A stretch of DNA of 64,000 nucleotides from an uncultured bacterium (GTDB lineage: Bacteria; Zhuqueibacterota; QNDG01; DSAB01): positions 10,130-74,129 of the forward strand of contig CAZTZL010000003.1 of NCBI GenBank assembly GCA_964617625.1, read 5' to 3'. The notes under the pieces are model-generated. The model had not been told where the DNA came from. It made no database searches and saw nothing but the letters and a program-made list of their open reading frames with translations. A program made the translations under genes and the position numbers. Shown here one piece after another: positions 29,603 to 52,964 of this stretch; the first letter of the stretch is position 1, and every line of letters begins with the position of its first letter.

Positions 29603-30053
29603 AAGCTATTGACTCCTGAATTAGATTATTGACTGATCTTTGGTAAATTTATAAAAGGAATTTCATTTTAATCCTGAAACGTCGGGAGAAGAATCCATCA
29701 ATACTTACTCGATATGCTTCGATAGGTTTACCCTGAGTCTTTCGAAGGGCTCGGTATGCGTCCCCCCGTTTCCTTTATTCGTGGAATTTGCTAAAGTTCT
29801 GTTACCTCAATTAAAGCAGCTTCTTTGTCTGTATAAAATCTGTATATATTAAAGTTGTAATTTCCTATCTGAAAAAATCACAGACTTTCAGAGCCATTTT
29901 ACTCTTTATTGGTAATTGATAACTCATCATCGTTGTCGGATCGAAGGAATTCGGATCATATTGTTCCAAGTTAAAATTTTTCTCTATTTCTATTTTATTA
30001 TATTCAACATGAACAATCTTTTCACCCATCAGGAGAATTATTTATTACAAATT

Positions 30054-30431: not shown

Positions 30432-30500
30432 ATTTAAATCCTTTAAAGAAATACTTTTTCATTTGACTTGAGATGGTTTTTTTATAGAACTCAAGGCTGA

Positions 30501-31646
30501 TTAGATTTTGATTCGTATTTGTAAGGCTTCCGGGATCGAGTCTTCCGAAGCGACAACGATATATCCACCTCCGCTCCCGGAAAATATTGCGCCTGGATAG
30601 GAAGCGTACCTTTCTAATTGCTCAAGTGATTCGTCCAAAACAGTCATCGGCAGAAGATGTTTCCAGGCTTCCAAACTCAGTGTGAGTGATCGCCCCAAAC
30701 CCATGACATCTTTGTTTCGGATACTCTGCCAGCACAATTCACCAGACTCAGCCAGTTTTTTGACCCATTCAACTGTCAGGTTTTTGTTCCGGATTGGATC
30801 GTACTGTGTCGGTCTGGACTGAATGGGAATCAAATGAATCACTTTTTCAAGCCATTCGGCCGTCTCTCTGTCTGTGAGAGAGTCAATCCGGCTTGGCCAG
30901 TAATCTCCTTCGTAAAACAACCGGTTAATTCCCGGCAGGAGTAAACCGAGATGATCCTGAGAACCCGAAACGTACCGTGCGCCTGGTGGATTCTCCGCTC
31001 CGAAAAGCAATTTGGCATTGCGTACCGGATCGCCCTTCGGTATCCTGTCCCCCCAAAGTTCCTGGGCCACCTTCCTTGAGCTGGTAGCCATTCCCGATCT
31101 TTCATGAAAATCAATGTTCGGCTTGATCTGCGCCACGATAACGGGTCCGGGATGTAGTTCGGATACCCAGGGCTGATCCAGCCACCCTCCTGCAAGACAG
31201 ATGCGGTACGGCAACCGCAGGTTTTTTTTAATTTCCGAACTCGCCCGTGCAGTCAAACCGCTTTCAGGAACGCGGTCGAGCACAATGTAATCCACGCCAT
31301 TTTCCTTGCAGAGCTTATCTTTTCCTTCAGTGTGACCATCAGAATTGACAATGAAAACCTCCGGCCGTAAACGAACCAAATCTGGTTTAAAATCAAGAAT
31401 GCCGCTGCCAGAACTCAAGAACGCCTGATGAACATAACGAATGGCGTTTACCATGTAGAGACGTTCTTCCTGAGAAAAGGTTGGCGTTTTCCCTTTCAGG
31501 TGTCTGATATTTTGATCACTGCCGACTGCGACATACAATTCTCCATAACCAGACGCTTCTTTAAAAAACGCGACATGCCCCGCATGCAGCAAATCAAAAC
31601 ATCCGCTAACGAGAACCTTTTTTCTCTTTGATATGGATTTCCCCAT
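30501..31646 (-). CDS. bifunctional cytidylyltransferase-like nucleotidyltransferase / GHMP-family anomeric sugar kinase
   Basis: The N-terminal domain reads KKVLVSGCFDLLHAGHVAFFKEA, the (H/T)xGH motif of the PF01467 CTP-transferase-like family (TagD / HldE domain II type). The C-terminal domain carries LPYRICLAGGWLD, ERSGMATSS (GHMP motif II-like) and SGSGGGYIVV (GHMP motif III). The start at Met29 (ATG 31646..31644) overlaps the TGA of the upstream epimerase by 1 nt. Confidence 0.6.
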   Translation of the reverse strand: MGKSISKRKKVLVSGCFDLLHAGHVAFFKEASGYGELYVAVGSDQNIRHLKGKTPTFSQEERLYMVNAIRYVHQAFLSSGSGILDFKPDLVRLRPEVFIVNSDGHTEGKDKLCKENGVDYIVLDRVPESGLTARASSEIKKNLRLPYRICLAGGWLDQPWVSELHPGPVIVAQIKPNIDFHERSGMATSSRKVAQELWGDRIPKGDPVRNAKLLFGAENPPGARYVSGSQDHLGLLLPGINRLFYEGDYWPSRIDSLTDRETAEWLEKVIHLIPIQSRPTQYDPIRNKNLTVEWVKKLAESGELCWQSIRNKDVMGLGRSLTLSLEAWKHLLPMTVLDESLEQLERYASYPGAIFSGSGGGYIVVASEDSIPEALQIRIKI

Positions 31647-32626
31647 CACGCCTGCTTTGCGGTCATCCGCGAGTAAATCCAATTGTACGTTTGTTTCATC
31701 CCTTCTCTCAAAGAAATGGAAGGCTCCCAATTCAAATACTCTTTAATCAGGGCATTGTCGCTGTTTCGGCCGCGAACGCCTTTGGGTGCGTCGAGGTCGT
31801 ACTTCCGCTGCAGTTTGATTCCGGCAATGTTTTCAACGATATCTGTCAAGGCGTTGATGGACACCATTTCACTTGAACCCAGATTGATCGGTTCCTCGAT
31901 CCGGCTGGTCATGATGTCGAAGATTCCCTTGATGCAATCATCGATGTACATAAAACTGCGGGTCTGTAAACCGTCTCCCCAGATCACAATTTCATGTTTG
32001 CCAGACAGTTGGGCTTCGATGACTTTACGACATATAGCCGCGGGTGCTTTCTCCCGACCGCCTTCGTACGTACCGAATGGTCCGTACACATTGTGAAACC
32101 GGGCGACGCGGGTGGTCAATCCATAATCCTCCCTGAAATGCCGGCACATCCGCTCGCTAAACAGTTTCTCCCAACCATAACCGTCTTCGGCCAGAGCAGG
32201 ATAGGCGTCGGATTCTTTCAGGCCGGGATTGTCCGGATCGGTCTGTTTCTCGCCGTTATACACACATGCGGAGGACGAATAAAAATACCGGTCCACGCCC
32301 ATGTCCTTCGCGGCCATGAGAAGATGGGTATTGATCAGCACACTGATCATGCATGCCGCTTTGTGGGTTTCAATAAATCCCATACCGCCCATGTCTGCGG
32401 CCAGATTGTAGACTTCGTTGAATCCTTTGACCGCTTGGTAGCAGTTCTCTTTCTCTCGAAGATCGAGAACCAAATTCTCCGTATCCGGAAATACCTGGTA
32501 CCATTCGTTTAATGGTTTGATGTCTACCGCACGGATGAGATGATTCTTTTTCTTACTCAAGGCGGAGACCAGATGCCCCCCAATAAATCCCCCTGCTCCG
32601 GCAACAACGACTTTATTCATTTCCAT
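31646..32626 (-). CDS. GDP-mannose 3,5-epimerase-like SDR (NDP-sugar epimerase)
   Basis: 326 aa. VVAGAGGFIGGHL is the Rossmann motif. NLAADMGGMGFI, FYSSSACVYN, GYGWEKL, FHNVYGPFGTYEGGREKAPAA, WGDGLQTRSF and GVRGRNSDN are near-identical to plant GME blocks as I recall them. Confidence 0.7.
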   Translation of the reverse strand: MEMNKVVVAGAGGFIGGHLVSALSKKKNHLIRAVDIKPLNEWYQVFPDTENLVLDLREKENCYQAVKGFNEVYNLAADMGGMGFIETHKAACMISVLINTHLLMAAKDMGVDRYFYSSSACVYNGEKQTDPDNPGLKESDAYPALAEDGYGWEKLFSERMCRHFREDYGLTTRVARFHNVYGPFGTYEGGREKAPAAICRKVIEAQLSGKHEIVIWGDGLQTRSFMYIDDCIKGIFDIMTSRIEEPINLGSSEMVSINALTDIVENIAGIKLQRKYDLDAPKGVRGRNSDNALIKEYLNWEPSISLREGMKQTYNWIYSRMTAKQA

Positions 32627-32872: not shown

Positions 32873-34618
32873 TTAATCTCCCAGCCAGGCGGAAAGGTTT
32901 TGCGAGGGAATCAGGATTCTGGTAATGTCAGGTCCATCCCACGCAACAGATACGTTATCGCCTCCACCGCCTTCTTTGTGAAGTACTTCAATATAGTATA
33001 ATTTTCCGGCTTCCAGTTCAAAATCGGTGGAATGTTGAGATGGATACTCATCGTAGGACCGGTTTCCGGTCCAAATGTCCACCCTTGCAATTTCTGCTTT
33101 CGATTCCGGGTTTTCGTTCATACTGAGCAACAACTGGGAGGCATCATCACTGGCGATCCAGAATGAATAGGTGCCGCTGACGTCCGGACGGACAAATCCC
33201 CTCAGACGCGATCCATAATTTTCACCGAAATTTTGCGGTCCCTCCATTTGACTAAGGTACTGCCTCCCACTCGGGAAATCTGGAAATCTCGGATCTAAAG
33301 TTAAACTGCCTATTGTCGTTCCATTCATGTTGTTCCACCACTCCCGGAGAATGTGCCCGTCGTAGGATTGGACGGTTTGGACCAGAACAGTATCCGCAAA
33401 ACCATTGGCGGTGTCTTTCACGATCAAAAGCGTATTGCCTTCGGCTCCCGCGAGAAGAGTGGCCTCGGAAAAACCAGCTTCGAGCGGCTCCACAGTCATG
33501 ATTTCCGGATCTGCGGAAAACCACTCGTACATCGGAGTGGTGTTTCCACTCTGGGAGTAAGCCCTCACTATTCGCGGTACATTTACGCCGGCAATCAGGG
33601 AGTCGACTCCTTCTGGCTCAGCCGATGTCCAATTAACAGCTATTCCCGTTTCCAAATCTTCGAATTGGCTTGCATCGAACGAGTTTTTCATCGTGGAGCC
33701 TGTCCCATTATAAGCATTGGCGGAAATGGACATTTCAACTTGCTGCGTTCCCGTTCCTCTCAGCGAAGACTGATAGGAAATCCAATAAAAACTATCCGCA
33801 AATTTGGTGATGGATGTCTGGGTTTGGGTGAAGGCTTCGACAAGTTGGTTTGTATCGGAAACAATGAGAAATCCGCGGGTTCCGATCTGATTCAGAAAAT
33901 CCCGATCCAGATCGCTGCCGAGACCGATGGTATAGACGTTCGCAAATTGTGAGGTATATATGACCTCTTCTTTGCTCTTTTCGTTTTCAGTGTCATCCCC
34001 GGCTGTAAAAACCACCAAATTCCCCTGTTGAAAGACTCCCAGGTTGTAAACTTCACTGTATAGATTAAATCCCCGCGATATAGCCCCGTACAGATTTCTC
34101 TCTGCTGAACCCGTTGTTATCCCATCAATCGCACTGATCAACTGAGTGGAATTCTGAGTAAAATCTTGTACCATATTTAATGTGCCTGAAAAAACATAAA
34201 CCGCAATTGACTGCATCGAAGCAATACCGTTTATAAAAGCCCGGACGGCTTCTTTTAAAACGTCCAGGTTAATTCCCGCGCTGACGTCCAACAACAGGAT
34301 CGTGTTCAAATTATAGTCGAACGTATTCTGTTTTCGGACAAACAAGGCCGCCTCGTCCGGATCTATGGACGTTCCGTTTTCCTTGATTGAAAAGCGGTCA
34401 ACGGTTAAAAAATCCACTGCCGTTCTGGAAGTGTCAACCACGTTGAAGAACAGGTGCACTTCATGCGGAGGGGAGGTCACCACACCGTGCGGCAGGATGA
34501 TGTACTCGCCCACATCGATAGCATGATTCTGGTCTTCGGGTCCGACCGTATCGCTCTTGTTACATTGGATGAAGCAAAAGGTTGCGATGACCAGCACGAA
34601 AAGAATTACATTCCTCAT
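32873..34618 (-). CDS. lipoprotein with vWA-like domain and C-terminal PA14 domain
   Basis: 581 aa. Signal peptide and lipobox IQCN. ILLLDVSAG region is MIDAS-like. C-terminal GENYGSRLRGFVRPDVSGTYSFWIASDDASQLLLSMNE...YYIEVLHKEGGGGD is a PA14 signature. Confidence 0.5.
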   Translation of the reverse strand: MRNVILFVLVIATFCFIQCNKSDTVGPEDQNHAIDVGEYIILPHGVVTSPPHEVHLFFNVVDTSRTAVDFLTVDRFSIKENGTSIDPDEAALFVRKQNTFDYNLNTILLLDVSAGINLDVLKEAVRAFINGIASMQSIAVYVFSGTLNMVQDFTQNSTQLISAIDGITTGSAERNLYGAISRGFNLYSEVYNLGVFQQGNLVVFTAGDDTENEKSKEEVIYTSQFANVYTIGLGSDLDRDFLNQIGTRGFLIVSDTNQLVEAFTQTQTSITKFADSFYWISYQSSLRGTGTQQVEMSISANAYNGTGSTMKNSFDASQFEDLETGIAVNWTSAEPEGVDSLIAGVNVPRIVRAYSQSGNTTPMYEWFSADPEIMTVEPLEAGFSEATLLAGAEGNTLLIVKDTANGFADTVLVQTVQSYDGHILREWWNNMNGTTIGSLTLDPRFPDFPSGRQYLSQMEGPQNFGENYGSRLRGFVRPDVSGTYSFWIASDDASQLLLSMNENPESKAEIARVDIWTGNRSYDEYPSQHSTDFELEAGKLYYIEVLHKEGGGGDNVSVAWDGPDITRILIPSQNLSAWLGD

Positions 34619-34659: not shown

Positions 34660-35721
34660 CTAAAACGTCATGCCGGCGGTGAACATGGAATAATTCCCCA
34701 GGAGACCTATCGTTTTATAGGCGTAATCCAACTTTAATTCCTTGTTGTTCATCAAGGCCCAGTGAATGCCTCCGCCGAAGGTCCATCCATATTCCGAGCT
34801 GTCCATGAAGAGACCGTGATAGCCGGCTCTTAAGAAGAATTTAGCCATTCCCGGTAGACTCAACCGGTATTCTCCGCCCAAGTTGATCGATTCGCTGTTG
34901 TTATTGGGATGAAGTGCATCCATAGCGAAGCACAATTGATGATTGAGAGTTTTTATTGGAATCACCGACACACCGATTCTGAAGATCAGGGGAAGTTCCC
35001 AGGACTGAAGTCGGAATTGACCCTCAACATCTTTAAAGTTGCCGCTTTCTTCAGGAGAAATATCGATGGGCTGCAGAAGGTCCATCCCGTCGTATTTCAT
35101 TCGGGTACCGTAGTTGGAAATGCTCATGCCGATGGAAAGGCCGTTTTCCCGGTTTCCGTCCGGAGAAAAGAAAGTGGTATTGACCATGACCCCCAGATCC
35201 AGAGCCGCCGCGCTTGCTTTCATATGCCAGATACTGGAATTAATGTATTTGAAAGAAATACCAAATCCAAACCATTGAGCCAGTTTCCGGGCGTATGAAA
35301 GACTCGCTGCGATGTCCATCGCCGAATAGGATTCACCCGTTCCCTCCTGCATTTCCATGGTCGTTACAGGGGTGTTTCCGTAATTCAAGGCTGTGTAAGA
35401 GAGGGCAATCGTCCCATAATTGGGCAAAACCACAGCCACACCTCCATGACTGAAATTGATGTCGATAATCCAGGATTGATAGACGAACTGGACTTCATTA
35501 AGGGTTAAATAAGAAAGTCCTGCCGGATTCCAATACACGGACGAAAGATCCCGCGCGACACTGACATAGGCTTCGCCCATGGCACATCCGGCACTTTCGG
35601 CACCAATTTCAAGAAAATTGGCGGTCGTTGTTCCCACACGATAGGGTTTGGACTGTGCCCAAACTTGAACGCTGCACAACAACCCCGTGGTGAGCAATAG
35701 TGCAAATCGTTTTTTGTTCAT
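34660..35721 (-). CDS. porV: PorV-like (FadL-fold) T9SS outer-membrane beta-barrel shuttle protein
   Basis: 353 aa. Signal peptide. N-terminal TTANFLEIGAESAGCAMGEAYVSVARDLSSVYWNPAGL is the pattern conserved in PorV/LptO proteins. Ends in aromatic residues typical of beta-barrel OMPs. Sits directly downstream of a large protein bearing a T9SS C-terminal domain. Confidence 0.55.
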   Translation of the reverse strand: MNKKRFALLLTTGLLCSVQVWAQSKPYRVGTTTANFLEIGAESAGCAMGEAYVSVARDLSSVYWNPAGLSYLTLNEVQFVYQSWIIDINFSHGGVAVVLPNYGTIALSYTALNYGNTPVTTMEMQEGTGESYSAMDIAASLSYARKLAQWFGFGISFKYINSSIWHMKASAAALDLGVMVNTTFFSPDGNRENGLSIGMSISNYGTRMKYDGMDLLQPIDISPEESGNFKDVEGQFRLQSWELPLIFRIGVSVIPIKTLNHQLCFAMDALHPNNNSESINLGGEYRLSLPGMAKFFLRAGYHGLFMDSSEYGWTFGGGIHWALMNNKELKLDYAYKTIGLLGNYSMFTAGMTF

Positions 35722-35767
35722 ATCTCATCTCCTGTGATTGGAATGAATGGACATTCCAACAATTTCA

Positions 35768-38700
35768 TTACTTTATAACCGCAAATTTACCGATTTTTTC
35801 ATCCCCGGTTGCGTTGGATTTGACATGGAAAATGTACATCCCGGCCGCGATTTCAAGTCCCTCGCGGGATAACAAATTCCAGTGGACGATTCCATTGGAT
35901 GGTTCGTTGGCCACGTCGATTTTGTCGACCAATACGCCCGATGGGGTAAAAATACGGATCACACAGTTGGCCGGAATATGCGTGAAAAGGAGCCTCCGGC
36001 CCTGGTTCAAATATGGATTAGCCACTGCCGTCTCCATCAAGTTGGTTGCAATATATGGATTAGGCACTACTTTGATTGAATCCATTGACATTTTTAGTTT
36101 TGATTTGTCCATATCCTTCGCCGGATTGATTGTAAAGACCAAAGAATCCGATTCCGCAAGCGGTTTATGAAAAGATATTCGATAGGTATCACCCATTGTT
36201 GTCGGATTGCTGTTGCTCCCAGTTTGGATGAAATCGAAACCAAAGATCGTCCCGCTCCACCAGAACTTGTCGTCAACCTGATTGACATAACCTACAAGGA
36301 ATCGATCCGTATCCCAGTCAAGTGAACCATTTTCATTGACATCATACAAAACACAATCCAATTTTTCATAGTTGTTCAAACTGTCCTTGATTAAATTATT
36401 AATGATATAAAACGGATACTTCAGCCCCAATACACTATTCGTGGTTTTTACCAGGGTACCATCCACATCATAAATGCTGGTGTGCCTATTGGTTAGCGAC
36501 TGATATTCCTGGCTGGGATCGAATACAATTTCGTATTGATAAGCAAAATATTGTGCCGCAGGACCCAATTGAAAATTGATGGGTGCCTCTCCCTGAATCC
36601 AACCAGTATGATCCAGATCCAATTCGACGGAATCAGAAGGAATCGAGACATTGCATTGGAGTCCCTGAAAAACATCGGTAGTGATATTGCGGTTGGCTGG
36701 ATATTCCCAGACTTCTTTATCGGTACTGTATTGTAAATTGTTATCCGGGAAACCACTCTCGGCATTCTCTACATAAACACGCTGGCTTGTTTGTGTAATA
36801 TCATAAACCTCAATGCCGGATGTCACCCGTTTTCCGTCTCTAATGGATCTTCTTGCCTGCGTTCGTTCATAAAATTCCATTGGAGTGCTTTGAAACGTCA
36901 ATTTATAAGTGTGACCCTTCTCAGCTGCACTCGGATCGATAATTGCGGGGATGACCTGACCGTTCGCCAGTCGTTCCGACGAACGTCCTGTATCGATATC
37001 AATTTCAGGTGGCACATAACCCGCTGCCATTTGTCTTGGCATCACAATCTGGATGTTTTGTCCCAAGAAAGTAATGTTTTCCGATTCGTCCTGATAGATA
37101 TGTACCGTGTTTTCGGCCGGGGCAATATCGAGGTCTTCGACGCCATAATCATAGGCGACCAGTGCGTAATAATAAGTTCTGCCGTTTTGAACGTCAGTAT
37201 CCTCGAAATAATGCCGGATTCCCGTGTCGTCGCCCAGATACACGAGATGACCTTCCCGCTCTCCTCCGAAACTGCAGTAACCTGTAATTGTATCGATTTT
37301 ATCACATTGAAAAAGCGGCGCGCGGAATTTCTTGGCCCCTTGCCCGTCGGTAATGGTTATAGGATCGGATATAAATTTATCCGTTGATTTATACAATTTA
37401 TATCCTTCAAAATCATTGATATTCTGCAGAAGGGGTTCACGGGTTTTTGTATCGGCGGCGTCATCCCAGGTGAGGGTGACTTTCCCATCCCCCGGAATGG
37501 CGGACAAGGTTGGCATCACAGGAGGCTGGGCGAACTGGTAATCGCGCTCATAGATAATCTGGGCCACCTCTTTGAGCCGGAACAGATTCGGCGCCCGGTG
37601 TTCCGAGGCGTTGAGCACAGCAAGGTTTTCATACGCACACATGAACGCCATCGACACCCTTTCGGTATGGCCCTTATAAAACTCAAAAGGCGAAGAGGCA
37701 AAAATCATGTATATCGATCCTACGGATCCTGCGATGAGAAATTCGGACAGCGAATCGGAATTCATCACATTCCATACATTTTTGTCTTCATCGATCGTTA
37801 AATTCAAGGTGTTCTGCCACTCTGCCCAATCGAACAACAGAAAGCTGGTCAGCCCGACCATGTCCGATTCGCCGACGTCCTGCGGCCCGAAATTGGGTTC
37901 ACCTTTGGTAGCAATGAAATCCGGTTTGTGGTTGCACTCGGTTCCATCAAGATCCGGGCCATAGTAGTTTAAATCGCCTGGTCCGACACCGTCAATGCCA
38001 ACATCATCACCCACAAATGCTCCGGATTCAAGAATCCAGATCCCATGGTCATCCTGATCGGCGTATTGTCCATCATTGTCCGGATCAATTCCGTCCTGCC
38101 AATCCTGATCCTCATCACCCTCCCAATGTTCTTTGGGCTCACGGTGATAGAAATTGCTAAATTTGTACGTATCGATGAGTTTCCCGTCAACCCCGACATT
38201 GGGACCAACCCATTCACCTGCTGGATTATCTCGCCTTTCATCAATGATACCATCGTCGTCATCATCAATCCCGTTATAGGCTTTGCCCGGGCTTTCCAGA
38301 TAGGCGTACCCCATGGTTCCCGGCATGCGTCCGCCTTCCCCTTGGCCCATCTGTTCCCAGACATAGCACAGATCGAGTACTTTATCGCGATAACCGACCT
38401 CATTTTCCCCGCTGGCATCGCCTCCGATACTGTTATCGATGTAATATCCGAAACCGCTTAACGGCAAGTTATAATCGGAGACATTGGAGATATTGTACTC
38501 CCAGAAAACAATGTCCTGGGCCTCAATATTGGACCACTGGTATCCCCGCACTTCAATACGGAGACCGAGACCGCCCCACGGTAACCCCTTTTGGATAGTA
38601 ACATTGGGATCAAAATCTCCGATGACTCTTCCAGGCCTGGGATGGTAGCGGGGCCCGTCGGTGATGAGTTTTTCTTCCGGGTCATTGCGCTGGATGATAT

Positions 38701-39334
38701 ATTCCATGTCCTGCGCGTCATTGGCCACAAAATACGATTCCAGGTCTGCCTTTACAAGACCTCTGCCGTATCGTCCGAACCATTCGCCCTGCCACACTCT
38801 GGTGAAACCGGTTAAAGGCCATCCTGCCGGAGGCCACGAATCGGGATTGTCGCTCATGGCCACGTTATCCTGAGCCTCGTTGCAATAACCCGGTACAGGA
38901 TAAATCCCCCATTCCACGGTTCCGTCGTAATTCAAATCCGGTTGGGCATCAGCATAAGAATGGGATTGTAGAAAGTACAATGTGTCGATGGCACCGGTTT
39001 CATTCAATCGGGGATCGTTCAAATTGTCGACGGGAATGGAATCGTTATACACATAAACCTGGCTCCCCACCAATACTGAGGCGACATCGATCATCCGCTG
39101 ACCTGTGTAATCATTCGGCCACCGGCTTGTGCCGACTGTGGGGTAATCTGCGATCTGCGTGTTGTTTTCAAAATAAAGCAGCAGCCGGTTTGAGTTCATG
39201 TAGCTGGAACGGATAGCAGAGATATCACCTGCCGGATCTTCTGGACCTGTGTACTCGTTGCCCTGAGCCAACAAGCTGGATACGCATAATGCCATCCACA
39301 AGCATGCTACAAGAAATTTAGTCCTTATTTTCAT
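35768..39334 (-). CDS. large secreted protein with T9SS C-terminal sorting domain, Asp-rich Ca-binding-like repeats and FN3-like domain; candidate PorU-like by synteny
   Basis: 1188 aa. Signal peptide. DxDxDG-type stretches (GIDDDDDGIIDE, GIDPDNDGQYADQDDHG, GDDVGIDGVGPGDLNYYGPDLDG). An FN3-like KVTLTWDD. A C-terminal roughly 80-aa tail ...CVIRIFTPSGVLVDKI...GMYIFHVKSNATGDEKIGKFAVIK typical of a Por_Secre_tail. Gene order large-CTD-protein then PorV is as in porU-porV. The C25 catalytic His/Cys could not be confirmed. Confidence 0.4.
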   Translation of the reverse strand: MKIRTKFLVACLWMALCVSSLLAQGNEYTGPEDPAGDISAIRSSYMNSNRLLLYFENNTQIADYPTVGTSRWPNDYTGQRMIDVASVLVGSQVYVYNDSIPVDNLNDPRLNETGAIDTLYFLQSHSYADAQPDLNYDGTVEWGIYPVPGYCNEAQDNVAMSDNPDSWPPAGWPLTGFTRVWQGEWFGRYGRGLVKADLESYFVANDAQDMEYIIQRNDPEEKLITDGPRYHPRPGRVIGDFDPNVTIQKGLPWGGLGLRIEVRGYQWSNIEAQDIVFWEYNISNVSDYNLPLSGFGYYIDNSIGGDASGENEVGYRDKVLDLCYVWEQMGQGEGGRMPGTMGYAYLESPGKAYNGIDDDDDGIIDERRDNPAGEWVGPNVGVDGKLIDTYKFSNFYHREPKEHWEGDEDQDWQDGIDPDNDGQYADQDDHGIWILESGAFVGDDVGIDGVGPGDLNYYGPDLDGTECNHKPDFIATKGEPNFGPQDVGESDMVGLTSFLLFDWAEWQNTLNLTIDEDKNVWNVMNSDSLSEFLIAGSVGSIYMIFASSPFEFYKGHTERVSMAFMCAYENLAVLNASEHRAPNLFRLKEVAQIIYERDYQFAQPPVMPTLSAIPGDGKVTLTWDDAADTKTREPLLQNINDFEGYKLYKSTDKFISDPITITDGQGAKKFRAPLFQCDKIDTITGYCSFGGEREGHLVYLGDDTGIRHYFEDTDVQNGRTYYYALVAYDYGVEDLDIAPAENTVHIYQDESENITFLGQNIQIVMPRQMAAGYVPPEIDIDTGRSSERLANGQVIPAIIDPSAAEKGHTYKLTFQSTPMEFYERTQARRSIRDGKRVTSGIEVYDITQTSQRVYVENAESGFPDNNLQYSTDKEVWEYPANRNITTDVFQGLQCNVSIPSDSVELDLDHTGWIQGEAPINFQLGPAAQYFAYQYEIVFDPSQEYQSLTNRHTSIYDVDGTLVKTTNSVLGLKYPFYIINNLIKDSLNNYEKLDCVLYDVNENGSLDWDTDRFLVGYVNQVDDKFWWSGTIFGFDFIQTGSNSNPTTMGDTYRISFHKPLAESDSLVFTINPAKDMDKSKLKMSMDSIKVVPNPYIATNLMETAVANPYLNQGRRLLFTHIPANCVIRIFTPSGVLVDKIDVANEPSNGIVHWNLLSREGLEIAAGMYIFHVKSNATGDEKIGKFAVIK

Positions 39335-39398
39335 ACCACTGTCTCCTAAATTATCTGATTTGTTTCATCCTGGCAAATAAGATATCATTGATCATTGT

Positions 39399-42152
39399 TT
39401 AAAAAGTATATCCCATTGTAATTTTAACCGACCTGGGATTCAAATACATGGTCGGATTTTTAACCTGGTCATAATAATCGTTATAATCGCTGCGGAAGCG
39501 ACTCAGATCAGCTTCCGTCACAATTCTGGTGTAAGGCTGGCCAGTATCACCATACACCCAGGCGGCGTTGAGTTTGTCGAACAAATTGTAAACATTGAGT
39601 GTGAATTTGACTGAATGCCCGCCAAATAAGGGAACCATGTAAGAGGCTGTCAAGTCGAAGCTCAGGGATGTCGGTTTGGATGCGTTGTTTTCATAGAGAT
39701 TAATCCGATAGAGCGAGCTGTAATCGGGAGCATCATAGGTGTACGGTGTTCCCGAATTGATATATCCGGTCAGTGCCGCGTCCCAATTCTTTGCTGTATA
39801 GGAAACAGTAGCGTTTATCGTGTACCGCTGGTCCCATTCCAGGGGAATCAACCGAGTGATCGGATCCATGCTGTCGCCCGCACGCGTATATGTGTCTCTT
39901 GGATTGTCCGCATTGCCGCGTGTAAAAGAATATGTGAAATTCACAAAAGAGGAGAATCCACAATAAACGTAATCCCATGTCAACTCAATGCCACGGGCAT
40001 TGCCGTAATCCTTGTTAGTGAATAGGCCGTATTTAATTTGATTGTAAGTGGTTATGATTTTCGTGCTGAGAAGGTTGTAGATATCTTTATAATACAGTGA
40101 AACCTCCAGCCCCATGCCCGTCATGAGCTGCTGCCATAAACCGATTTCATATTGAACCGTTTTTTCCGCTTTGAGCTGGGAGTTGCCGATAGTGGTCCGA
40201 AAATTGAACGGGGATACGCGAAAAATGTTATCCTCAAACAAAGCGAACATCTGCGGCATTTGGAAAAAATGTCCGTAGCTGAATCGGAGTACGGCCTGGT
40301 CGCTCAACTTGTAGGACAAGCCCAATCGCGGGCTGAACTGCATTTGCGGATCATTTTTCAACATCGTGGACATCATGGAATCCGGAAGCGACAACTGGTT
40401 GGATGGATTTCGCCAGTTGGAGGGATAATGATAATTGGCGTTAAAATAATCGTATCGCAGGCCCAGTTTGATCACCATTTCATTGAATTCCATCTTGTCC
40501 TGAATGTAAGCCGATATCTCGTATGGTTTTACTTTATAAATATCAACCGTATTTTCCGTGATCGGGACGGTTTCAAGTATATAAAAAGGAAAATAGATTT
40601 TCCCTGTCTCGGGATCTATAACCATCTCGTTTTCAATCGGAAGTCCATCATACTGGTTCCGCACATCGACCCGCCACCTGTCTATAACATGAGAGGTATA
40701 CAGGAAGCCTGTTTTGAAACCATGTGTTTTATTTGCCTGCCAGTACAGGTCAAATTTGGCGTCTCCTCTCAGGAACGTGTCTTTTCTCTTTCCCGGATCC
40801 ACCATACCGCCTGTATAAAAACCGGTTTCAATGCTCCCCCGATAATTCGGACTTAGATATCGAGAATCCAGTGGATCCTTATATAAGTAGGATTCCTCCA
40901 CCCGATCGGTATATGAAAATTTCAGATCATAAAACAGGGCTTTCGAAATCATGTGGTTGATATCAAAAGAACCAAAATGAATGGTGCTAAAGTCCCATGG
41001 CAATCCGTCCGGATTGTATTTGTACTGAAAATCGCCCAGGCCATTATTGAACCGTTTGCTCTTATTACCGTTGAATGTGTAAAGCAAATTCACCTTGAAA
41101 TTGTTGGTGATTTTGCAAGTCAGCTTTCCCATGGCATTGTGGTAAAAATTCTTCTGCATGGCCACAAACTGGTTATTACCGGTGTGTTCGATGTGCCAGG
41201 ACGCTGGATCAAGCGATGGATAAACACTGTAATCCCAAGGATTAAACCGTCGGATACCGTTGATCGGTCCTCGGTTGTTTTGGTACCGATAGTTGGCAAA
41301 AACGGTCAACCAATTTTTAAAAATAGGACCGTCGAGCTGAACTTTATAATCCTGGCTCAAATTTCGTTCCAGGTAATCGGATTTCCCAAGCCCGATGAAC
41401 ACATTGTTATGGGAAGTGAAATAATTGCTATACCCGCTCGAAAGAGACCATTGCCATACATTGCCCCCCTCTTTCGTTACTGCGTTAACCATACCGCTCA
41501 TGGCACGGCCGTATTCCGCGTCAAAAGTGCCCTTGATCACTTCCAGATCCTGAACAACTTCTTTTTCAACATACACGCTCTGTCTGGAATATTCACTGAA
41601 TGAGTTGACGACCGGCAATCCGTCAACCAGGTACGAAACCTCGCTAGTGCGGCCACCGCGGAAATGCCCCTGTACAACACCAGCCTGCATATTCACAACT
41701 TGATCAACCGACTCAACCGGAAGCTTGGATATTTGATCGGCTGACACGTTGCGGACTGAACTGGTTTGATCTTTTTTAAATGAAACCGCGCTCGCGGTCA
41801 CTACCACGGCTTCACCCTGAAGAACTGTTTTTTTCAGTTCAAATTTTAAATTAGTTGTAGAATTGACGCTGACGCGAACGTTTTCCATTTTGACAGGCGT
41901 GTAACCAATCATCCTCGCTTGGATATCGTAGGTGCCCGGTGGAATATTAATAATAAAATACTGCCCATTTGCATCCGCTGCAGTTCCGGACGACGTATGA
42001 AGCAACATTACATTCGCACCTATAAGAGGTTCGCCAGTGTCTTTATCAACAACCGTTCCAGCAATTTTCCCCGTTGTCTGTGCAAAGGACAACCCGAATC
42101 CTATAATTATGAACAGAAACAGAATAATAAATAACCAGTTCTTAACGTGCAT
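39399..42152 (-). CDS. TonB-dependent outer-membrane receptor with N-terminal carboxypeptidase-regulatory-like domain
   Basis: 917 aa. Signal peptide. GKIAGTVVDKDTGEPLIGANVML...GTYDIQARMIGYTP is the CarbopepD_reg fold. A plug and 22-strand barrel region follow. C-terminal ...KITMGYTF. No SusD-like gene follows. Confidence 0.8.
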   Translation of the reverse strand: MHVKNWLFIILFLFIIIGFGLSFAQTTGKIAGTVVDKDTGEPLIGANVMLLHTSSGTAADANGQYFIINIPPGTYDIQARMIGYTPVKMENVRVSVNSTTNLKFELKKTVLQGEAVVVTASAVSFKKDQTSSVRNVSADQISKLPVESVDQVVNMQAGVVQGHFRGGRTSEVSYLVDGLPVVNSFSEYSRQSVYVEKEVVQDLEVIKGTFDAEYGRAMSGMVNAVTKEGGNVWQWSLSSGYSNYFTSHNNVFIGLGKSDYLERNLSQDYKVQLDGPIFKNWLTVFANYRYQNNRGPINGIRRFNPWDYSVYPSLDPASWHIEHTGNNQFVAMQKNFYHNAMGKLTCKITNNFKVNLLYTFNGNKSKRFNNGLGDFQYKYNPDGLPWDFSTIHFGSFDINHMISKALFYDLKFSYTDRVEESYLYKDPLDSRYLSPNYRGSIETGFYTGGMVDPGKRKDTFLRGDAKFDLYWQANKTHGFKTGFLYTSHVIDRWRVDVRNQYDGLPIENEMVIDPETGKIYFPFYILETVPITENTVDIYKVKPYEISAYIQDKMEFNEMVIKLGLRYDYFNANYHYPSNWRNPSNQLSLPDSMMSTMLKNDPQMQFSPRLGLSYKLSDQAVLRFSYGHFFQMPQMFALFEDNIFRVSPFNFRTTIGNSQLKAEKTVQYEIGLWQQLMTGMGLEVSLYYKDIYNLLSTKIITTYNQIKYGLFTNKDYGNARGIELTWDYVYCGFSSFVNFTYSFTRGNADNPRDTYTRAGDSMDPITRLIPLEWDQRYTINATVSYTAKNWDAALTGYINSGTPYTYDAPDYSSLYRINLYENNASKPTSLSFDLTASYMVPLFGGHSVKFTLNVYNLFDKLNAAWVYGDTGQPYTRIVTEADLSRFRSDYNDYYDQVKNPTMYLNPRSVKITMGYTF

Positions 42153-42189
42153 AAAAACCTCCCTTCAGGAATGCCAATACATCGATGCT

Positions 42190-42215
42190 TAATAACTTAC
42201 TCGAGTAAGTTATTA
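42190..42215. promoter_or_regulatory. 26-bp perfect palindrome TAATAACTTACTCGAGTAAGTTATTA; candidate LacI-family operator upstream of the TonB receptor gene
   Basis: Read directly from the sequence. Exact dyad symmetry with a central CG, as in LacI/GalR-type operators. It lies about 40 bp upstream of the TonB receptor start codon and immediately downstream of the LacI gene. Confidence 0.5.
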
Positions 42216-42234
42216 CTTAAAAATACCTACTCTA

Positions 42235-43263
42235 CTAATTTATCGCAACATGTTCGGGTATTCGAATCGATTCTCCGATTTCGATTTCAGCTGGAATAAA
42301 TATTTTTTGTTCGTGCATATCCTCCCCCTTGATCCGTTGAAGCATTATTTCCATAGCTTTTTTACCGAGATTATACGGATTCACATTGATAATTGTCATT
42401 GAAGGTGTAATAATCTTGGCAAATTCATGGTGTCCAAATGCAACCACACCGATCTTTTCTGGAAATAAAATGCCTAATTCCTTCATGGCGTCATAAGCAC
42501 CCAGCGCATTTTGATCGTTTGCCGAGAAAACAACTTCAGGCATTGAATCAGTCTGATAGAGCTTCATGAAACAACGATAGCCATCCGTTCGTGTGAATCC
42601 TCCTTCTATGATCCATTCTTCCCGAACGGGAATTTGATGTCTCTTTAAGGAATCAAGATATCCATCACGCCGGTTTCGTCCGATATCTGTCAGAAGGCTT
42701 CCTCCCAAATGAGCAATACGTTGATACCCGCAGCGCACGACAAAATCGATCAATCTTCGTGCGGCGCCCCTGTCATCAATGCCAACCGAACTGAATCCTG
42801 AATAATCCACAGCGCGGTCAAAGAAAACCAGAGGTATATTTGAACGCTTGATTTTATCAAATATCTGGGTGTCCTTCGTTTCCCTTGAAACAGCCAGTAG
42901 AATCCCATCTACCCTCATGGACAACAATGTTAAAATATTATCTTTCTCGGTATCGGCTTTTTCTCTTGAAACCGTAAGAATAATATGATACCCCGACAGC
43001 CTGGCGATATCCATGATGCCATCGATCACAAATGAGAAAAATGAGTTTGATACATCCGGGACGATAACGCCGATTGTTTTTGTTTCTTGGAAATGCAGTC
43101 TTCTTGCGTGATAATGGGGGATATAATTCATTTCTTCGGCCATATCCCACACACGCTTTTTCATCTCTACGGAAATATCATCCGCATCCTTCAGTGCCTT
43201 CGAAACCGTGGCTCGACTAACGTTTAATTTTTTTGCAATGGCGGATTGATTGATAATTGACAT
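42235..43263 (-). CDS. LacI-family transcriptional regulator
   Basis: 342 aa. N-terminal HTH IAKKLNVSRATVSKAL. Periplasmic-binding-protein-like sugar-binding core. Confidence 0.85.
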   Translation of the reverse strand: MSIINQSAIAKKLNVSRATVSKALKDADDISVEMKKRVWDMAEEMNYIPHYHARRLHFQETKTIGVIVPDVSNSFFSFVIDGIMDIARLSGYHIILTVSREKADTEKDNILTLLSMRVDGILLAVSRETKDTQIFDKIKRSNIPLVFFDRAVDYSGFSSVGIDDRGAARRLIDFVVRCGYQRIAHLGGSLLTDIGRNRRDGYLDSLKRHQIPVREEWIIEGGFTRTDGYRCFMKLYQTDSMPEVVFSANDQNALGAYDAMKELGILFPEKIGVVAFGHHEFAKIITPSMTIINVNPYNLGKKAMEIMLQRIKGEDMHEQKIFIPAEIEIGESIRIPEHVAIN

Positions 43264-43283
43264 TTACTTACTCGTGTAAGTTA
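43264..43283. promoter_or_regulatory. degenerate copy of the operator-like palindrome (TTACTTACTCGTGTAAGTTA) abutting the LacI start codon
   Basis: Same ACTTACTCG / -GTAAGT half-sites with 2 mismatches. Consistent with autoregulation. Confidence 0.4.
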
Positions 43284-43514
43284 CAACGGCTCTATTGTAC
43301 AAAGTTATCGACAAAAAGTCAAGTTTTTTTGGAAAAAACAACATAAAAAATTTGCATGGATTGACTTATAAATAAATTGCGGGCTTATTGGTGACATCTC
43401 CTATTCCACATTGTCCACAATAAACGCTCCGCTCATGAAATGCGGAATTGCTGGCACAGGAAAACAATACTCGATCATGTCATATAATAAATCCCATAAA
43501 ACATAGGATTTTTT

Positions 43515-43811
43515 TATGTGGCGCCTCCCAGTGCGCGAAGCCGATCGAGGACCGATCAGTCATGATCGGTTCGAAGATCAATCGAACGACCAGTTCGATT
43601 CTGGCATTAAATACCAATGGTACAATAATAAAACCCGCAGTCTTAAAAATCCTACGGGCTTATTGGTGGCGCCTCCCAGTGCGCGAAGCCGATCGAGGAC
43701 CGATCAGTCATGATCGGTTCGAAGATCAATCGAACGACCAGTTCGATTCTGGCATTAAATACCAATGGTACAATAATAAAACCCGCAGTCTTAAAAATCC
43801 TACGGGCTTAT
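43515..43811. repeat. two tandem direct repeats (period about 148 bp), each beginning with a copy of the 3' acceptor/T-arm end of the adjacent tRNA-Phe; a further degenerate junction copy at about 43381-43395
   Basis: The unit runs from tggtggcgcctcccag through gcgcgaagccgatcgaggaccgatcagtcatgatcggttcgaagatcaatcgaacgaccagttcgattctggcattaaataccaatggtacaataataaaacccgcagtcttaaaaatcctacgggc. It repeats at 43515 and 43661, then continues into the intact tRNA at 43811. gggcttattggtg recurs at 43383. Confidence 0.8.
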
Positions 43812-43887
<76 letters not shown>

Positions 43888-50199: not shown

Positions 50200-50655
50200 T
50201 TATTTCTCGGCTTTGGAAATGATATCGAAAGCCGCTTTCGGTGAAGCGGCATCTTTCAAGCTGTCTCGAAATGCAGTATTCATGGTCAACCGTGCAATTT
50301 GCGCCAAAACCTGAACATTGGGTCCCGCTGCCGTCGAGGGTGCAACCAGCAAAAAGAAAAGATGTGAAGGCTGGCTGTCCGCAGATTGAAAATCCAGCCC
50401 CTCTTTCGATATCCCCAGCGCCATGACCATCCCGTCAGCGGCCATGGTCTTCGCATGGGGAATCGCAATCCCCTTCTCAAGACCTGTGCTCATGAGTTGC
50501 TCCCGATCCATAATCGATTTCAGCACGGCTTCACGATCCTTGATCTTTCCCGTTTTCATGGCAAGATCAAGCAGCTCTTCAATAATACCCTGCTTGTCTC
50601 TATGCATCAATGATGTTGTAATTGTTCCCTCACTCAATAGATCCGAGATGCGCAT
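50200..50655 (-). CDS. ptsN: PTS EIIA(Ntr)-type regulatory protein
   Basis: 151 aa. GIAIPHAK phosphorylatable-His motif of the EIIA fructose/nitrogen family. Confidence 0.7.
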   Translation of the reverse strand: MRISDLLSEGTITTSLMHRDKQGIIEELLDLAMKTGKIKDREAVLKSIMDREQLMSTGLEKGIAIPHAKTMAADGMVMALGISKEGLDFQSADSQPSHLFFLLVAPSTAAGPNVQVLAQIARLTMNTAFRDSLKDAASPKAAFDIISKAEK

Positions 50656-50687
50656 TTCGTAATCCTCCTTAACAAACCGATGACACT

Positions 50688-51191
50688 CTATTCCAATGCA
50701 TTATAGAGTCGTTCAATATAATCCGCATTTTTAACAATCAGAACTGAACATTTTGCTTTTCGGAATATCAATTCCGCTTCGTCGTGAAATGTGTCCGTCC
50801 TCGAAAGAACAGGATCCAGCTCACCCATCACCAAAAGATCTGCACCCATTTCTTGAATCTTATCTACGACGGATTTACTGACAACACCCTTGATAAGTTC
50901 GGTGCGGATCTCGACTCCTTTGGCTTTTCCCAATTCTGCGATATAGTTGAGATAACGCTTCCCGTCCTGCTCCAGATCCTGTTCGTAATCCATCTCCTCT
51001 ATCTTAACAAAAATACGTGCCTTAACCAGCTCATCAAGAAGATGGACATTGACCACATACAGCGCCGTGACATCCGCGCCTGTTTTTTTGGACAAGGCAA
51101 TACTGTACTGGGCTGCCGTAACACACCCTTCGGAACCATCTACAAAAATCAGTATTTTCTTTGCCGGCCCCTCTGGTAGCATAAATGTCAC
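50688..51191 (-). CDS. universal stress protein (UspA family)
   Basis: 167 aa. ILIFVDGSE...ATP-binding G-x2-G-x9-GS-like C-terminus (VMGELDPVLSRT). Confidence 0.65.
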   Translation of the reverse strand: MTFMLPEGPAKKILIFVDGSEGCVTAAQYSIALSKKTGADVTALYVVNVHLLDELVKARIFVKIEEMDYEQDLEQDGKRYLNYIAELGKAKGVEIRTELIKGVVSKSVVDKIQEMGADLLVMGELDPVLSRTDTFHDEAELIFRKAKCSVLIVKNADYIERLYNALE

Positions 51192-51817
51192 CCCTCTTTC
51201 TTCTCCAATCGCTCTTTGATTATTTTAAGAGTCGCGAACGTTCCCCGTTCGCTCTCCTCCAACGTTTCCTCGATATATTTGATGGACTCATGATAATCGG
51301 GCAGGGCAATTTTATCCAGCGCATTGACCCGCCGCATGGTCTTGCGCACTTCCTCGGCAAGTCGAACGAGTGAGATACGAAGTTCAGCCAGTTTGGCCAG
51401 ATCCTGAAGAATACTTCTGAATCGGGCAATCGTCTCGTCCACCCAGAAGCTCGTTTCGCCGAGACTGAAATAGGGAGTTACATCTTTAATTTCCACATTT
51501 ACTTTGGGAAGATTCACTCCCATCACCCGCCGCATGTCGATTGTGATATCGGAATCGATATTAACAGCCGGGGCAATATTGATCAGGGATTGCCGCCCCA
51601 TGGAAAGCACCGCTTTTTGAAGCGATTGAAAAGCCTCTGCCAATACTTTTTCCACATGTTCCTGGGCATCGGCAGTCTTGTCCATCAGGCCCATGAGTTC
51701 GACAACAAGTATCTGCCTCTTCTGCTCCAGCAGATCGTATCCTTCCTGTGCAAAAGAAAGGTCACGCCTCAATCGCATCAAATTTGTTTTTGTAGGTATA
51801 ACCTTGTAACGCGCCAT
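51188..51817 (-). CDS. atpD: V/A-type ATPase subunit D
   Basis: 209 aa. MARYKVIPTKTNLMRLRRDLSFAQEGYDLLEQKRQIL is the classic V-type D N-terminus. Confidence 0.85.
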   Translation of the reverse strand: MARYKVIPTKTNLMRLRRDLSFAQEGYDLLEQKRQILVVELMGLMDKTADAQEHVEKVLAEAFQSLQKAVLSMGRQSLINIAPAVNIDSDITIDMRRVMGVNLPKVNVEIKDVTPYFSLGETSFWVDETIARFRSILQDLAKLAELRISLVRLAEEVRKTMRRVNALDKIALPDYHESIKYIEETLEESERGTFATLKIIKERLEKKEG

Positions 51818-51880
51818 GCTCTTCTTTTATACTTTTTTCTATTTTTTCAGAAACATCCCGGCCTTTTCAATATAATCAAA

Positions 51881-52924
51881 TTACATGAGATGAATCAAGA
51901 CCGTCAGCACAAAAAAGCCCGGAATGAGGAATTTTAAAAACAACAGAAACCAGAACATCGTTCCGGTTTTTTTACGATCAAGGGATAATATCCCGTTAAT
52001 CTTCAACAGCTTTTCTATGAGGCCGCTTTTGCCTTCGTAAAAAATTGTATCCACATGCCTCGGCAGGGTCTCAGTGATAACCATTGCCTGCTTTTTCAGT
52101 TCATCTCCCTCCAGCCGCCTGAGGCATTCCAGTTTTCCTGAAATTCCTTCCATCAACAGGATCACATCCTGTTTCAGATTGATTTTTTTCGCTTCGTGAA
52201 TGAGCGATTTCATGCGGCATTTCAATCTTCTTAAAAATTTAAAATAGAACGATTTCCGGACAACCCAGATAAAAAGTACCACATCGATAATGAAAAGTAC
52301 AAGTACGAAATAACCCAGATACCTCGTATATCCCATCTGGTTCCACGTGCCGTGGATCAGAACTGAAACGATCAGCCCCGGAACGAGAAGCCACCATTTG
52401 TGCTTTCGTTTCGCAAACCCGAGAAAAACACCGCTTACCACATTGATAAAAATATGACCGGAGACCGCCCGGAGAACAACGATATCGTGCAGCGCTTTTT
52501 TATAGATGCCCATCTGACCCGTTTGGATTCCAAAGACAAAAGGGCGGAGCACAAACTGATATGAGTACCCGATATTTTCCAGAACGGTGAATCCCGCTGC
52601 GACAACCAGATAATAAACAATACCGTCGATCTCTTCATTGAATGATTTCAGGTGCCAGACAAAGATCAAAACGATGACGAGTTTCAACGCCTCTTCAAAT
52701 AAACCCGCAACAACATAGTTTTCGAAAAGAACCGAAAAATGCCAATCAAACCGGGCAAATAAAAACTGTTTGAGTTTGCCAAAAACGAACGTCAGAAGAA
52801 TCGCACAGATGTATACTTTAACCAGTGTCCACGGCGGTTCTTTCTCATTGATATCAAAAAAATAGACCAGAAGAACCAGACACGCGCTTGCAAGTATATT
52901 GGTGACAATAATGTCCCCGATCAA
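51881..52924 (-). CDS. PrsW-family-like intramembrane metalloprotease homologue with C-terminal soluble extension
   Basis: 347 aa. Multiple TM helices. Motifs EExxK (FEEALKL), FxxxE (FTVLENIG) and HxxxN (HGTWN) appear in the PrsW order. Confidence 0.45.
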   Translation of the reverse strand: MIGDIIVTNILASACLVLLVYFFDINEKEPPWTLVKVYICAILLTFVFGKLKQFLFARFDWHFSVLFENYVVAGLFEEALKLVIVLIFVWHLKSFNEEIDGIVYYLVVAAGFTVLENIGYSYQFVLRPFVFGIQTGQMGIYKKALHDIVVLRAVSGHIFINVVSGVFLGFAKRKHKWWLLVPGLIVSVLIHGTWNQMGYTRYLGYFVLVLFIIDVVLFIWVVRKSFYFKFLRRLKCRMKSLIHEAKKINLKQDVILLMEGISGKLECLRRLEGDELKKQAMVITETLPRHVDTIFYEGKSGLIEKLLKINGILSLDRKKTGTMFWFLLFLKFLIPGFFVLTVLIHLM

Positions 52925-52964
52925 CGGCAGCTCCCAATTTTAAATACATGTTTGATTAATAAAA

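Follow-up and report, generated by a model that had tools for sequence, protein, structure and literature searches.

Candidate operators of a LacI-family repressor beside a TonB-dependent receptor cassette in an uncultured FCB-group bacterium

The closest described relatives of the element analyzed here are the operators of LacI/GalR-family repressors, for which Ravcheev et al. (2014; PMC4052901) recorded even palindromes for 1251 of 1303 factors, a central CG for 1173, and autoregulation in 72%. Here, we analyzed a 64,000-nucleotide stretch of contig CAZTZL010000003.1 (hereafter, the window) from an uncultured bacterium of the Fibrobacterota–Chlorobiota–Bacteroidota (FCB) group, in which two related palindromes, denoted O1 and O2, flank a lacI gene that is followed by the gene for a TonB-dependent receptor (TBDR). 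The two palindromes are very probably the operators of the adjacent LacI/GalR-family repressor, an assignment based on the sequence and its statistics, on conservation and promoter geometry, and on the family to which the protein belongs. They share with the catalogued operators (PMC4052901; RegPrecise) the even palindrome, the central CG, an autoregulatory site, a second site before an adjacent sugar operon, and a local regulon, and, judged by its sequence, the pair displays every testable property that Ravcheev et al. ascribe to operators of this family. However, the half-site is CTTAC/GTAAG rather than the common TGnAA/TTnCA, O1 abuts a start codon, and the lineage, which lies near KSB1 and Ignavibacteria, was apparently outside that study. 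No characterised transcriptional regulation in this FCB-group lineage was found in the literature searched.

LacI-type repressors that control a TBDR are known from Xanthomonas campestris, where SuxR controls suxA and also represses itself (PMC1790865), and from Caulobacter crescentus, where SucR controls sucA (PMC11897816). A preliminary description of the window had called a regulon of this kind unusual; since both of these systems are experimentally established, LacI control of a TBDR is not unusual in kind. The present locus resembles them in having a LacI-type, probably effector-released repressor encoded beside a TBDR gene, with probable control over the receptor and associated carbohydrate genes. 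In contrast to SuxR–suxA and SucR–sucA, disaccharide loci of proteobacteria in which an inner-membrane transporter has been identified, the receptor in the window is accompanied by a large surface protein of the T9SS (type IX secretion system) type and a PorV/Q barrel, within a 42-kb hemicellulose-type array of glycoside hydrolase (GH) genes. The regulatory design itself is typical, textbook LacI-family autoregulation, an ordinary kind of switch.

Two palindromes flanking lacI

The elements of the regulatory region are as follows:

42190–42215, minus strand: O2, perfect 26-bp palindrome TAATAACTTACTCGAGTAAGTTATTA, an exact CG-centred 13+13 dyad, between the lacI stop and TBDR start codons
42194–42211, within O2: its conserved 18-bp core AACTTACTCGAGTAAGTT, with a position weight matrix (PWM) score of 31.5 bits
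43264–43283, minus strand: O1, near copy TTACTTACTCGTGTAAGTTA, reading TAACTTACACGAGTAAGTAA in the lacI sense; core 43265–43282; PWM score 28.6 bits
42235–43263, minus strand: lacI, encoding a 342-aa LacI/GalR-family repressor; Pfam LacI helix-turn-helix (PF00356, 41.9 bits) and Peripla_BP (PF00532, 98.7 bits)
43294–43322, minus strand: predicted sigma-70 promoter of lacI, with a –35 box TTGACT (43322–43317), a 17-nt spacer and a –10 box TACAAT (43299–43294)
42158–42166, minus strand: Shine-Dalgarno sequence of the TBDR gene, GAAGGGAGG, conserved in orthologue alignments

O2 lies 19 nt past the lacI stop codon (42235–42237) and 38 nt ahead of the TBDR ATG at 42152, with its centre 50 nt 5′ of that ATG. 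O1 abuts the lacI ATG (43263), its end lying 1 nt ahead of the ATG in the lacI sense, and is 1071 bp from O2. The two sites differ at 2 positions over 20 nt and at 1 position over a 16-nt core. The exact CG-centred dyad and the two-mismatch copy next to the lacI start, both reported in the preliminary description, were thus found where it had placed them, and its proposal that they form an operator pair for autoregulation and for control of the TBDR block appears strongly supported by the conservation and promoter geometry set out below.

Neither the symmetry of O2 nor its likeness to O1 is explained by chance. In 300 windows simulated with a first-order Markov model, the longest perfect arm was 12 nt, seen once, vs. 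13 nt in O2. The 16-mer core, allowing up to 3 mismatches, has 2 matches in the window where 0.13 would be expected. With an 18-mer PWM derived from the orthologue sites, the runner-up to O2 and O1 in the 64-kb window scored 4.2 bits, and the highest score in 50 shuffled sequences was 17.2 bits. Operators of the family are even palindromes of 16–22 nt (PMC4052901); O2 contains an 18-bp symmetric core inside its 26-bp perfect palindrome. Both sites are also placed compatibly with promoters, the centre of O2 at –50 from the TBDR ATG and O1 at +6 to +23 of the predicted lacI transcript.

Hundreds of lacI homologues of graded identity were found in metagenomes, and the DNA of ten independent orthologous loci was compared, with LacI identities of 86, 80, 80, 78, 77, 69, 64, 60, 56 and 55%. 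A site corresponding to O1 is present 5′ of lacI in all ten, at 1–2 nt from the ATG in eight and at 17–44 nt in the two most distant (L046 and L047). A second site was found in all six orthologous loci that have the TBDR cassette, 0–30 nt past the lacI stop codon and 42–57 nt before the receptor ATG. Sites at the O2 position are present in L001, L016, L017, L038, L040, L042 and L046; in L046 the second site also follows lacI (15.8 bits), though the next gene there is an unannotated 291-aa open reading frame (ORF). Other orthologues lacking the TBDR cassette have O1 alone.

The CG-centred core CTTACnCGnGTAAG is kept at matching positions in these loci as islands within otherwise diverged spacers. 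When nine of the regions upstream of lacI were aligned, the sole invariant islands were CTTGAC (–35), TA..AT (–10), CTTAC.CGAGTAAG and the ATG; in the spacer between lacI and the receptor gene, they were TACTCG.GTAAGT, the Shine-Dalgarno sequence and the ATG. Every O1 and O2 site, in all orthologues, has the central CG unchanged. In about 300 kb of related loci, sites of 15 bits or more lie exclusively between genes. Read from the alignments, the conserved islands across the ten loci are a textbook phylogenetic footprint. The two sites differ in the bases next to the central CG: O2 is symmetric there (ACTCGAGT) in most orthologues that have it, whereas O1 is asymmetric, AC(A/C)CGAGT, in the window and in 8 of the 10 orthologous loci.

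O2 follows the lacI stop codon closely, and its RNA folds into an 11-bp stem (–9.9 kcal/mol, z = –4.2), while its outer arms remain symmetric through two-sided changes in some orthologues. Such a structure could be only a terminator or 3′-end hairpin of the lacI transcript, its likeness to O1 being incidental, an alternative that the preliminary description had also raised. However, the stem is AU-rich, with one G–C pair in 11, no U tract follows it (3′ flank, AGCAUCGAUG), and a terminator scan was negative. An intrinsic terminator consists of a G+C-rich stem-loop followed by a U tract, and O2 was rejected as a candidate on this ground. Furthermore, every orthologue repeats the core of O2 5′ of its lacI ATG, a position that would be senseless for a terminator; the would-be loop bases C-CG-G are invariant while the outer stem varies; and orthologues without the TBDR cassette retain O1 alone. 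A purely terminating function of O2 is thus refuted by the comparison, and we regard it as extremely improbable.

Two near-identical palindromic sequences around one gene could also mark the ends of a small mobile cassette carrying lacI, as its terminal inverted repeats, and about 500 bp away there is a tRNA-Phe gene whose 3′ end is duplicated in an att-like manner. However, the unit contains no transposase or integrase, each site is a palindrome in its own right and not a single arm of some long inverted repeat, and in none of the examined loci was a unit of lacI plus repeats seen at an unrelated position with target-site duplications. A mobile cassette was rejected because the sites stay in register with the promoter and start codons, and because some orthologues have O1 but no O2; its probability is close to nil.

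Repressor, promoter and proposed mode of control

Pfam domains confirmed the gene calls of LacI and of the TBDR in the preliminary description. The repressor encoded between the two sites has the recognition helix VSRATVSKAL and the hinge helix ARRL, the leucine of which aligns with that of the CcpA hinge ARGL, so that the DNA-binding domain (HTH_LacI), the sugar-binding domain and the hinge leucine of a cognate LacI-family regulator are all found next to the sites. In the structures of PurR, LacI and CcpA, the hinge leucine pries open the central CpG of the operator. LacI homologues from metagenome-assembled genomes (MAGs) of Bacteroidales, at 43–47% identity, retain the recognition helix as VSRITVSKAL, and a related CG-centred palindrome, TTTACACGTGAAAGT, is found there past the regulator gene and before a gene for a SusC-type TBDR or a transporter of the major facilitator superfamily (MFS).

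The sites might be genuine operators that are bound by another transcription factor, such as a global regulator encoded elsewhere, rather than by the adjacent LacI. The most common LacI-family consensus is TGnAAnCGnTTnCA, from which the half-site GTAAG departs. However, the motif accompanies this group of LacI orthologues at every locus regardless of the neighbouring genes, be they the TBDR cassette, GH9, GH95 or an epimerase operon, and the recognition helix and the motif core have been conserved together in homologues of as little as 43% identity. An even, CG-centred palindrome on the regulator's own promoter is, moreover, the signature of the LacI family, and there are no further sites in the 64 kb. 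Binding by another factor is therefore very unlikely, and the adjacent LacI is the preferred candidate.

The promoter of lacI was predicted by a consensus scan. The sequence TTGACT-17-TACAAT matches the consensus at 10 of 12 positions, and its –35 and –10 boxes are conserved in the orthologues. Transcription would start near 43287, about 7 nt past the –10 box, giving a leader of about 24 nt in which no Shine-Dalgarno sequence is present. With the start predicted there, O1 occupies most of the leader, the classic position from which a repressor can shut off its own gene. The junction between lacI and the TBDR gene looks different. No terminator was found there by the terminator scan, and between the lacI stop codon and O2 there are weak, non-conserved, AT-rich boxes resembling –10 elements, the candidate in the window being TTGCGA-17-TATTTT, which matches 8 of 12 consensus positions. 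Since there is neither a terminator nor a conserved promoter before O2, the simplest model is a single unit of promoter, O1, lacI, O2, TBDR and beyond. In the distant orthologues, lacI heads an operon in which GH95 or an epimerase gene follows 28–50 nt later, and operator sites occur only 5′ of lacI, which supports co-transcription as the ancestral design.

From these features, we infer how the switch would operate, including binding, start sites, the choice between read-through and an internal promoter, and the nature of the inducer. A LacI homodimer would recognise the 18-bp site AACTTACnCGnGTAAGTT, each helix-turn-helix reading one CTTAC/GTAAG half-site, with the hinge-helix leucines presumably inserted at the central CpG by analogy to PurR, LacI and CcpA. 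On O1, the repressor would block transcription of lacI, resulting in negative autoregulation. On O2, it would keep transcription out of the genes for the TBDR, a 1188-aa protein, a PorV/Q-like barrel and a von Willebrand factor A (VWA)/PA14 protein, either by acting as a roadblock when transcription reads through from the lacI promoter or by masking the start of the weak internal promoter TTGCGA-17-TATTTT. The symmetry of O2 and the asymmetry of O1 suggest that O2 is the stronger site and O1 a weaker, autoregulatory one, so that the uptake genes would be held more tightly than lacI itself. A sugar derived from a fucosylated xyloglucan-type polysaccharide, either L-fucose or an oligosaccharide, probably binds to the periplasmic-binding-protein-like domain and releases the repressor; a fucose-related inducer is the best guess because LacI orthologues are found directly 5′ of genes for GH95 fucosidase, epimerase, CTP_transf_like, rhaM, MFS and GH51.

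Operators that act as roadblocks or from auxiliary, internal positions include lac O2 within lacZ, the CcpA cre sites inside transcription units, and the PurR site at purB. O2 in the window resembles these in being a second operator downstream of the promoter-proximal one, in the same direction and without a strong conserved promoter of its own. It differs from them in being intergenic rather than inside a gene, and the repressor has no tetramerisation-helix extension. The alignment of the protein with CcpA runs up to residue 338 of 342; there is no C-terminal extension in which a LacI-type tetramerisation helix could fit, and lac-type looping over the 1071 bp between the sites is therefore unlikely.

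Several observations weigh against the operator pair as described. O1 is nearer to its start codon than the 75% of catalogued LacI sites that lie between –140 and –30 (PMC4052901). There is no conserved strong promoter directly 5′ of O2, which may act either as a roadblock or over an internal promoter. The PWM found no operator site in three large gaps of the GH array downstream (246, 451 and 388 nt), so that most of the 42-kb locus is not visibly under LacI control; similarly, in 23.5 kb of the orthologous locus L049 (69% identity), where synteny extends from LacI to rhaM, O1 and O2 are the only sites. Lastly, the outer arms of O2 partly co-vary symmetrically, and outside the 18-bp core the perfect symmetry continues, reaching 26 bp in the window and 32 bp in L001 (7046–7077), with different outer bases, which could indicate an added role as a hairpin.

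Such a dual role, in which O2 would be both a LacI operator and an intercistronic RNA or DNA hairpin for processing, stability or pausing, is compatible with the operator pair. Over eight O2 sites, 73% of the cells are paired vs. 67% in shuffled sets, a value reached by 4 of 500 shuffles, and seven pairs are changed on both sides (25 of 500 shuffles). However, the sample is small and its sequences are related, and L017, L038 and L040 are symmetric over the core only. In addition, template-switch events can perfect quasi-palindromes without any function, leaving a similar pattern. We consider the additional hairpin role unlikely and the plain operator pair the better description.

The candidate operator motif AACTTACnCGnGTAAGTT, together with its predicted promoter and repressor, is now defined for this uncultured lineage. 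It can be used to scan MAGs for the regulon, and it allows the construction of a sugar-inducible switch or the testing of inducers in vitro.

The receptor, large protein and barrel cassette

The genes that follow O2 are, in the order of transcription:

39399–42152, minus strand: TBDR, 917 aa, with CarboxypepD_reg, Plug and barrel domains; first gene past O2, adjoining lacI in orthologous loci
35768–39334, minus strand: putatively secreted protein of an unnamed family, 1188 aa, with a putative signal peptide, beta-rich domains and a C-terminus resembling the T9SS C-terminal domain (CTD)
34660–35721, minus strand: outer-membrane barrel of the PorV/PorQ family, 353 aa; NF033709, 204.5 bits vs. 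a cutoff of 90
32873–34618, minus strand: VWA + PA14 protein, 581 aa, in synteny with L049

The VWA + PA14 gene probably ends the transcription unit that O2 would control; a terminator-like hairpin (32834–32819) lies in the 246-nt gap that follows it. The regulon visible in the window would thus consist of lacI and the uptake cassette, with possible read-through into the epimerase, CTP_transf_like and rhaM genes beyond.

The receptor is not of the SusC type. The SusC/RagA model TIGR04056 gave 67 bits against a cutoff of 368 and matched the N-terminal domain only, and no SusD-family domain was found in any neighbouring ORF; the SusC/SusD pair that defines the polysaccharide utilisation loci (PULs) of Bacteroidota is thus absent here. 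The locus nevertheless resembles those PULs in that a TBDR heads a strand-coherent array of xyloglucan-PUL-like composition (GH5, GH3, GH31, GH29, GH43, GH51, GH97 and esterases), and in that the related Bacteroidales LacI homologues stand beside SusC-type genes with a similar palindrome. It differs in that the receptor scores below the SusC/RagA model and the SusD position is taken by the 1188-aa CTD-bearing protein and the PorV/Q-like barrel.

The preliminary description had called the 1188-aa protein PorU-like. The protein has no Pfam domain, and specifically no Peptidase_C25, and phmmer found no significant sequence match in the PDB. Among NCBIfam models, there were solely sub-threshold matches to the T9SS sorting domain (TIGR04183, 17.8 bits vs. 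a cutoff of 23) and to the PorZ C-terminus. The N-terminus resembles a signal peptide, and the CTD-like tail, which ends in ...GMYIFHVKSNATGDEKIGKFAVIK, is nearly invariant over 47 homologues. An AlphaFold model (pLDDT 77.6) shows the tail as a beta-sandwich, and its best Foldseek matches in the PDB were PorZ (5m11) and PorU (6za2), with TM-scores of at most 0.13 (0.06–0.07 for 6za2). A profile of the family searched against the PDB matched the PorU CTD only, with E = 0.41. Since Pfam, NCBIfam, PDB and Foldseek all showed a resemblance in the CTD or beta-sandwich alone, PorU was rejected as an identity for this protein, which is probably a T9SS-cargo-like surface protein. Conserved aspartate-rich repeats (NGIDDDDDGIIDE, EGDEDQDWQDGIDPDNDG and GDDVGIDGVGPGD) are present at 37952–38275, corresponding to residues ≈354–461, and resemble calcium-binding motifs of the thrombospondin-type-3-like kind in a region modeled with low confidence.

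The 353-aa protein does belong to the PorV/PorQ family, as the earlier name PorV had implied, and matches PorV in the PDB with E = 3.2e-6. However, it falls below both equivalog cutoffs, with 83.6 bits vs. 250 for PorV and 89.7 bits vs. 220 for PorQ, and by these profile scores it is a PorV/PorQ-family paralogue that is neither equivalog. With no PorU identity and a barrel below the equivalog thresholds, the two genes are not core T9SS machinery. The pairing of a large CTD-bearing protein gene with a PorV/PorQ-family barrel gene is reminiscent of PorU–PorV and PorZ–PorQ, but the similarity is confined to the CTD, and the pair in the window lies in a presumed sugar-regulated uptake operon and recurs in many GH loci.

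The large protein belongs to a family of at least 1437 homologues of ≈1150–1210 aa that lack a Pfam domain; its few source-named members come from KSB1, Ignavibacteria and Calditrichia MAGs. The order of receptor, large protein and barrel (34660–42152 in the window) recurs in L038, L040, L042/L049, L048 and a further contig, amid differing GH sets that include GH16/GH5/GH2 and GH29/GH38, and some contigs have two copies side by side. For the barrel gene of L048, the sole Pfam match is faint and generic (OMP_b-brl) instead of PorV. No description of the triad was found in the searchable literature.

Tentatively, an Oar-like TBDR, a T9SS-secreted protein of ≈1150–1210 aa and a dedicated PorV/PorQ barrel that tethers this protein by its retained C-terminal domain could make up an undescribed outer-membrane glycan-capture system, with a role similar to that of SusC/SusD, which would be a marker of polysaccharide-utilisation loci in KSB1, Ignavibacteria and Calditrichia. 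We think it possible, though rather doubtful, that all of this holds; that the triad may be a capture module analogous to SusC/SusD is a lead, not a finding. It is the more interesting lead compared to the operator pair, which is itself of modest interest on account of the lineage and the uncharacterised cassette. By marking the triad as a sugar-regulated uptake module, the operator pair provides the best available functional clue to this large unannotated protein family.

The surrounding array and neighbouring sequences

From 1.7 to 43.3 kb, the window is one minus-strand array, the 42-kb locus referred to above. It starts with LacI, TBDR, the 1188-aa protein, the PorV/Q-like barrel, VWA + PA14, epimerase, CTP_transf_like and rhaM, and continues after rhaM with GH29, GH97, GH3, GH43, GH43, a carboxylesterase, GH27/36, GH31, an esterase, GH51, GH3 and GH5. 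By annotation, the enzyme set fits a fucosylated or arabinosylated xyloglucan-type hemicellulose. Loci of the kind described by Blanvillain (2007) as carbohydrate utilisation (CUT) loci, to which the sucrose locus SuxR–suxA of Xanthomonas campestris belongs, cluster a TBDR, a regulator, degradative enzymes and an inner-membrane sugar transporter. In the window, the TBDR, LacI and many glycoside hydrolases are present, but no inner-membrane sugar transporter of the MFS, sodium:solute symporter (SSS) or ATP-binding cassette (ABC) type was recognised; three ORFs, of 753, 247 and 217 aa, are without a Pfam match. An MFS gene is present in the orthologous loci L046 and L047.

In the distant orthologues, lacI opens an operon that also contains GH95, epimerase, CTP_transf_like and rhaM genes, and the latter three types are also found downstream in the window, which has a GH29 alpha-L-fucosidase; GH95 was not found in the window. 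The three genes occupy 30054–32626 in the window, 7499–13842 in L045, 9068–11564 in L047 and 16643–19183 in L049. They encode an NAD-dependent epimerase/dehydratase (similar to GDP-fucose synthase at 124 bits, far under the cutoff), a CTP_transf_like protein of ≈380–410 aa and a RhaM-family mutarotase, and they accompany this LacI orthologue group across loci, often beside fucosidases (GH29, GH95). Their co-occurrence suggests an uncharacterised deoxy-hexose pathway. The cytidylyltransferase-like ORF (30501–31730, 409 aa) has a TTG start and overlaps the epimerase gene by 85 nt; since its orthologues are 374–381 aa long, the real start is probably further downstream.

An isolated half-site upstream of GH29 had also been pointed out in the preliminary description. 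The sequence, ACTTACTCGA, is indeed present at 29703–29712, 101 nt 5′ of the GH29 ATG, and the exact 10-mer would be expected 0.06 times, but when the PWM is applied to it as a full site, the score is –2.8 bits, at background level. It was rejected as an operator and taken as a chance occurrence or a relic. The syntenic locus L049 has GH51 and GH95 at this position instead of GH29. An exact 13-mer, TATTGATGGATTC, directly follows the half-site in the GH29 spacer (29691–29703) and is repeated at 26879–26891, both on the minus strand and 80–90 nt 5′ of the GH29 and GH97 starts, respectively. It is common to the GH97 upstream region and not to the operator, and may be a shared promoter element or the site of another regulator.

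On the other side of lacI, a tRNA-Phe(GAA) gene (43812–43887, minus strand) is followed by two exact tandem units of 148 bp (43518–43665 and 43666–43813). The final ≈16 nt of the tRNA (CTGGGAGGCGCCACCA) form the end of each unit, which also includes a terminator-like hairpin (CCCGTAGG...CTGCGGGTTTTATT), and a third, degenerate piece of the repeat is present at 43369–43401. From their sequence, the units look like repeated att-like scars or pseudo-tRNA tails. Further along, at 50200–63898, there is a V/A-type ATPase gene set (C/AC39, I, E, A, B and D) with genes for a 1014-aa subtilase and a PrsW-family protease located between B and D, and, beside it, genes for a phosphotransferase system (PTS) EIIA-2 protein and a universal stress protein.

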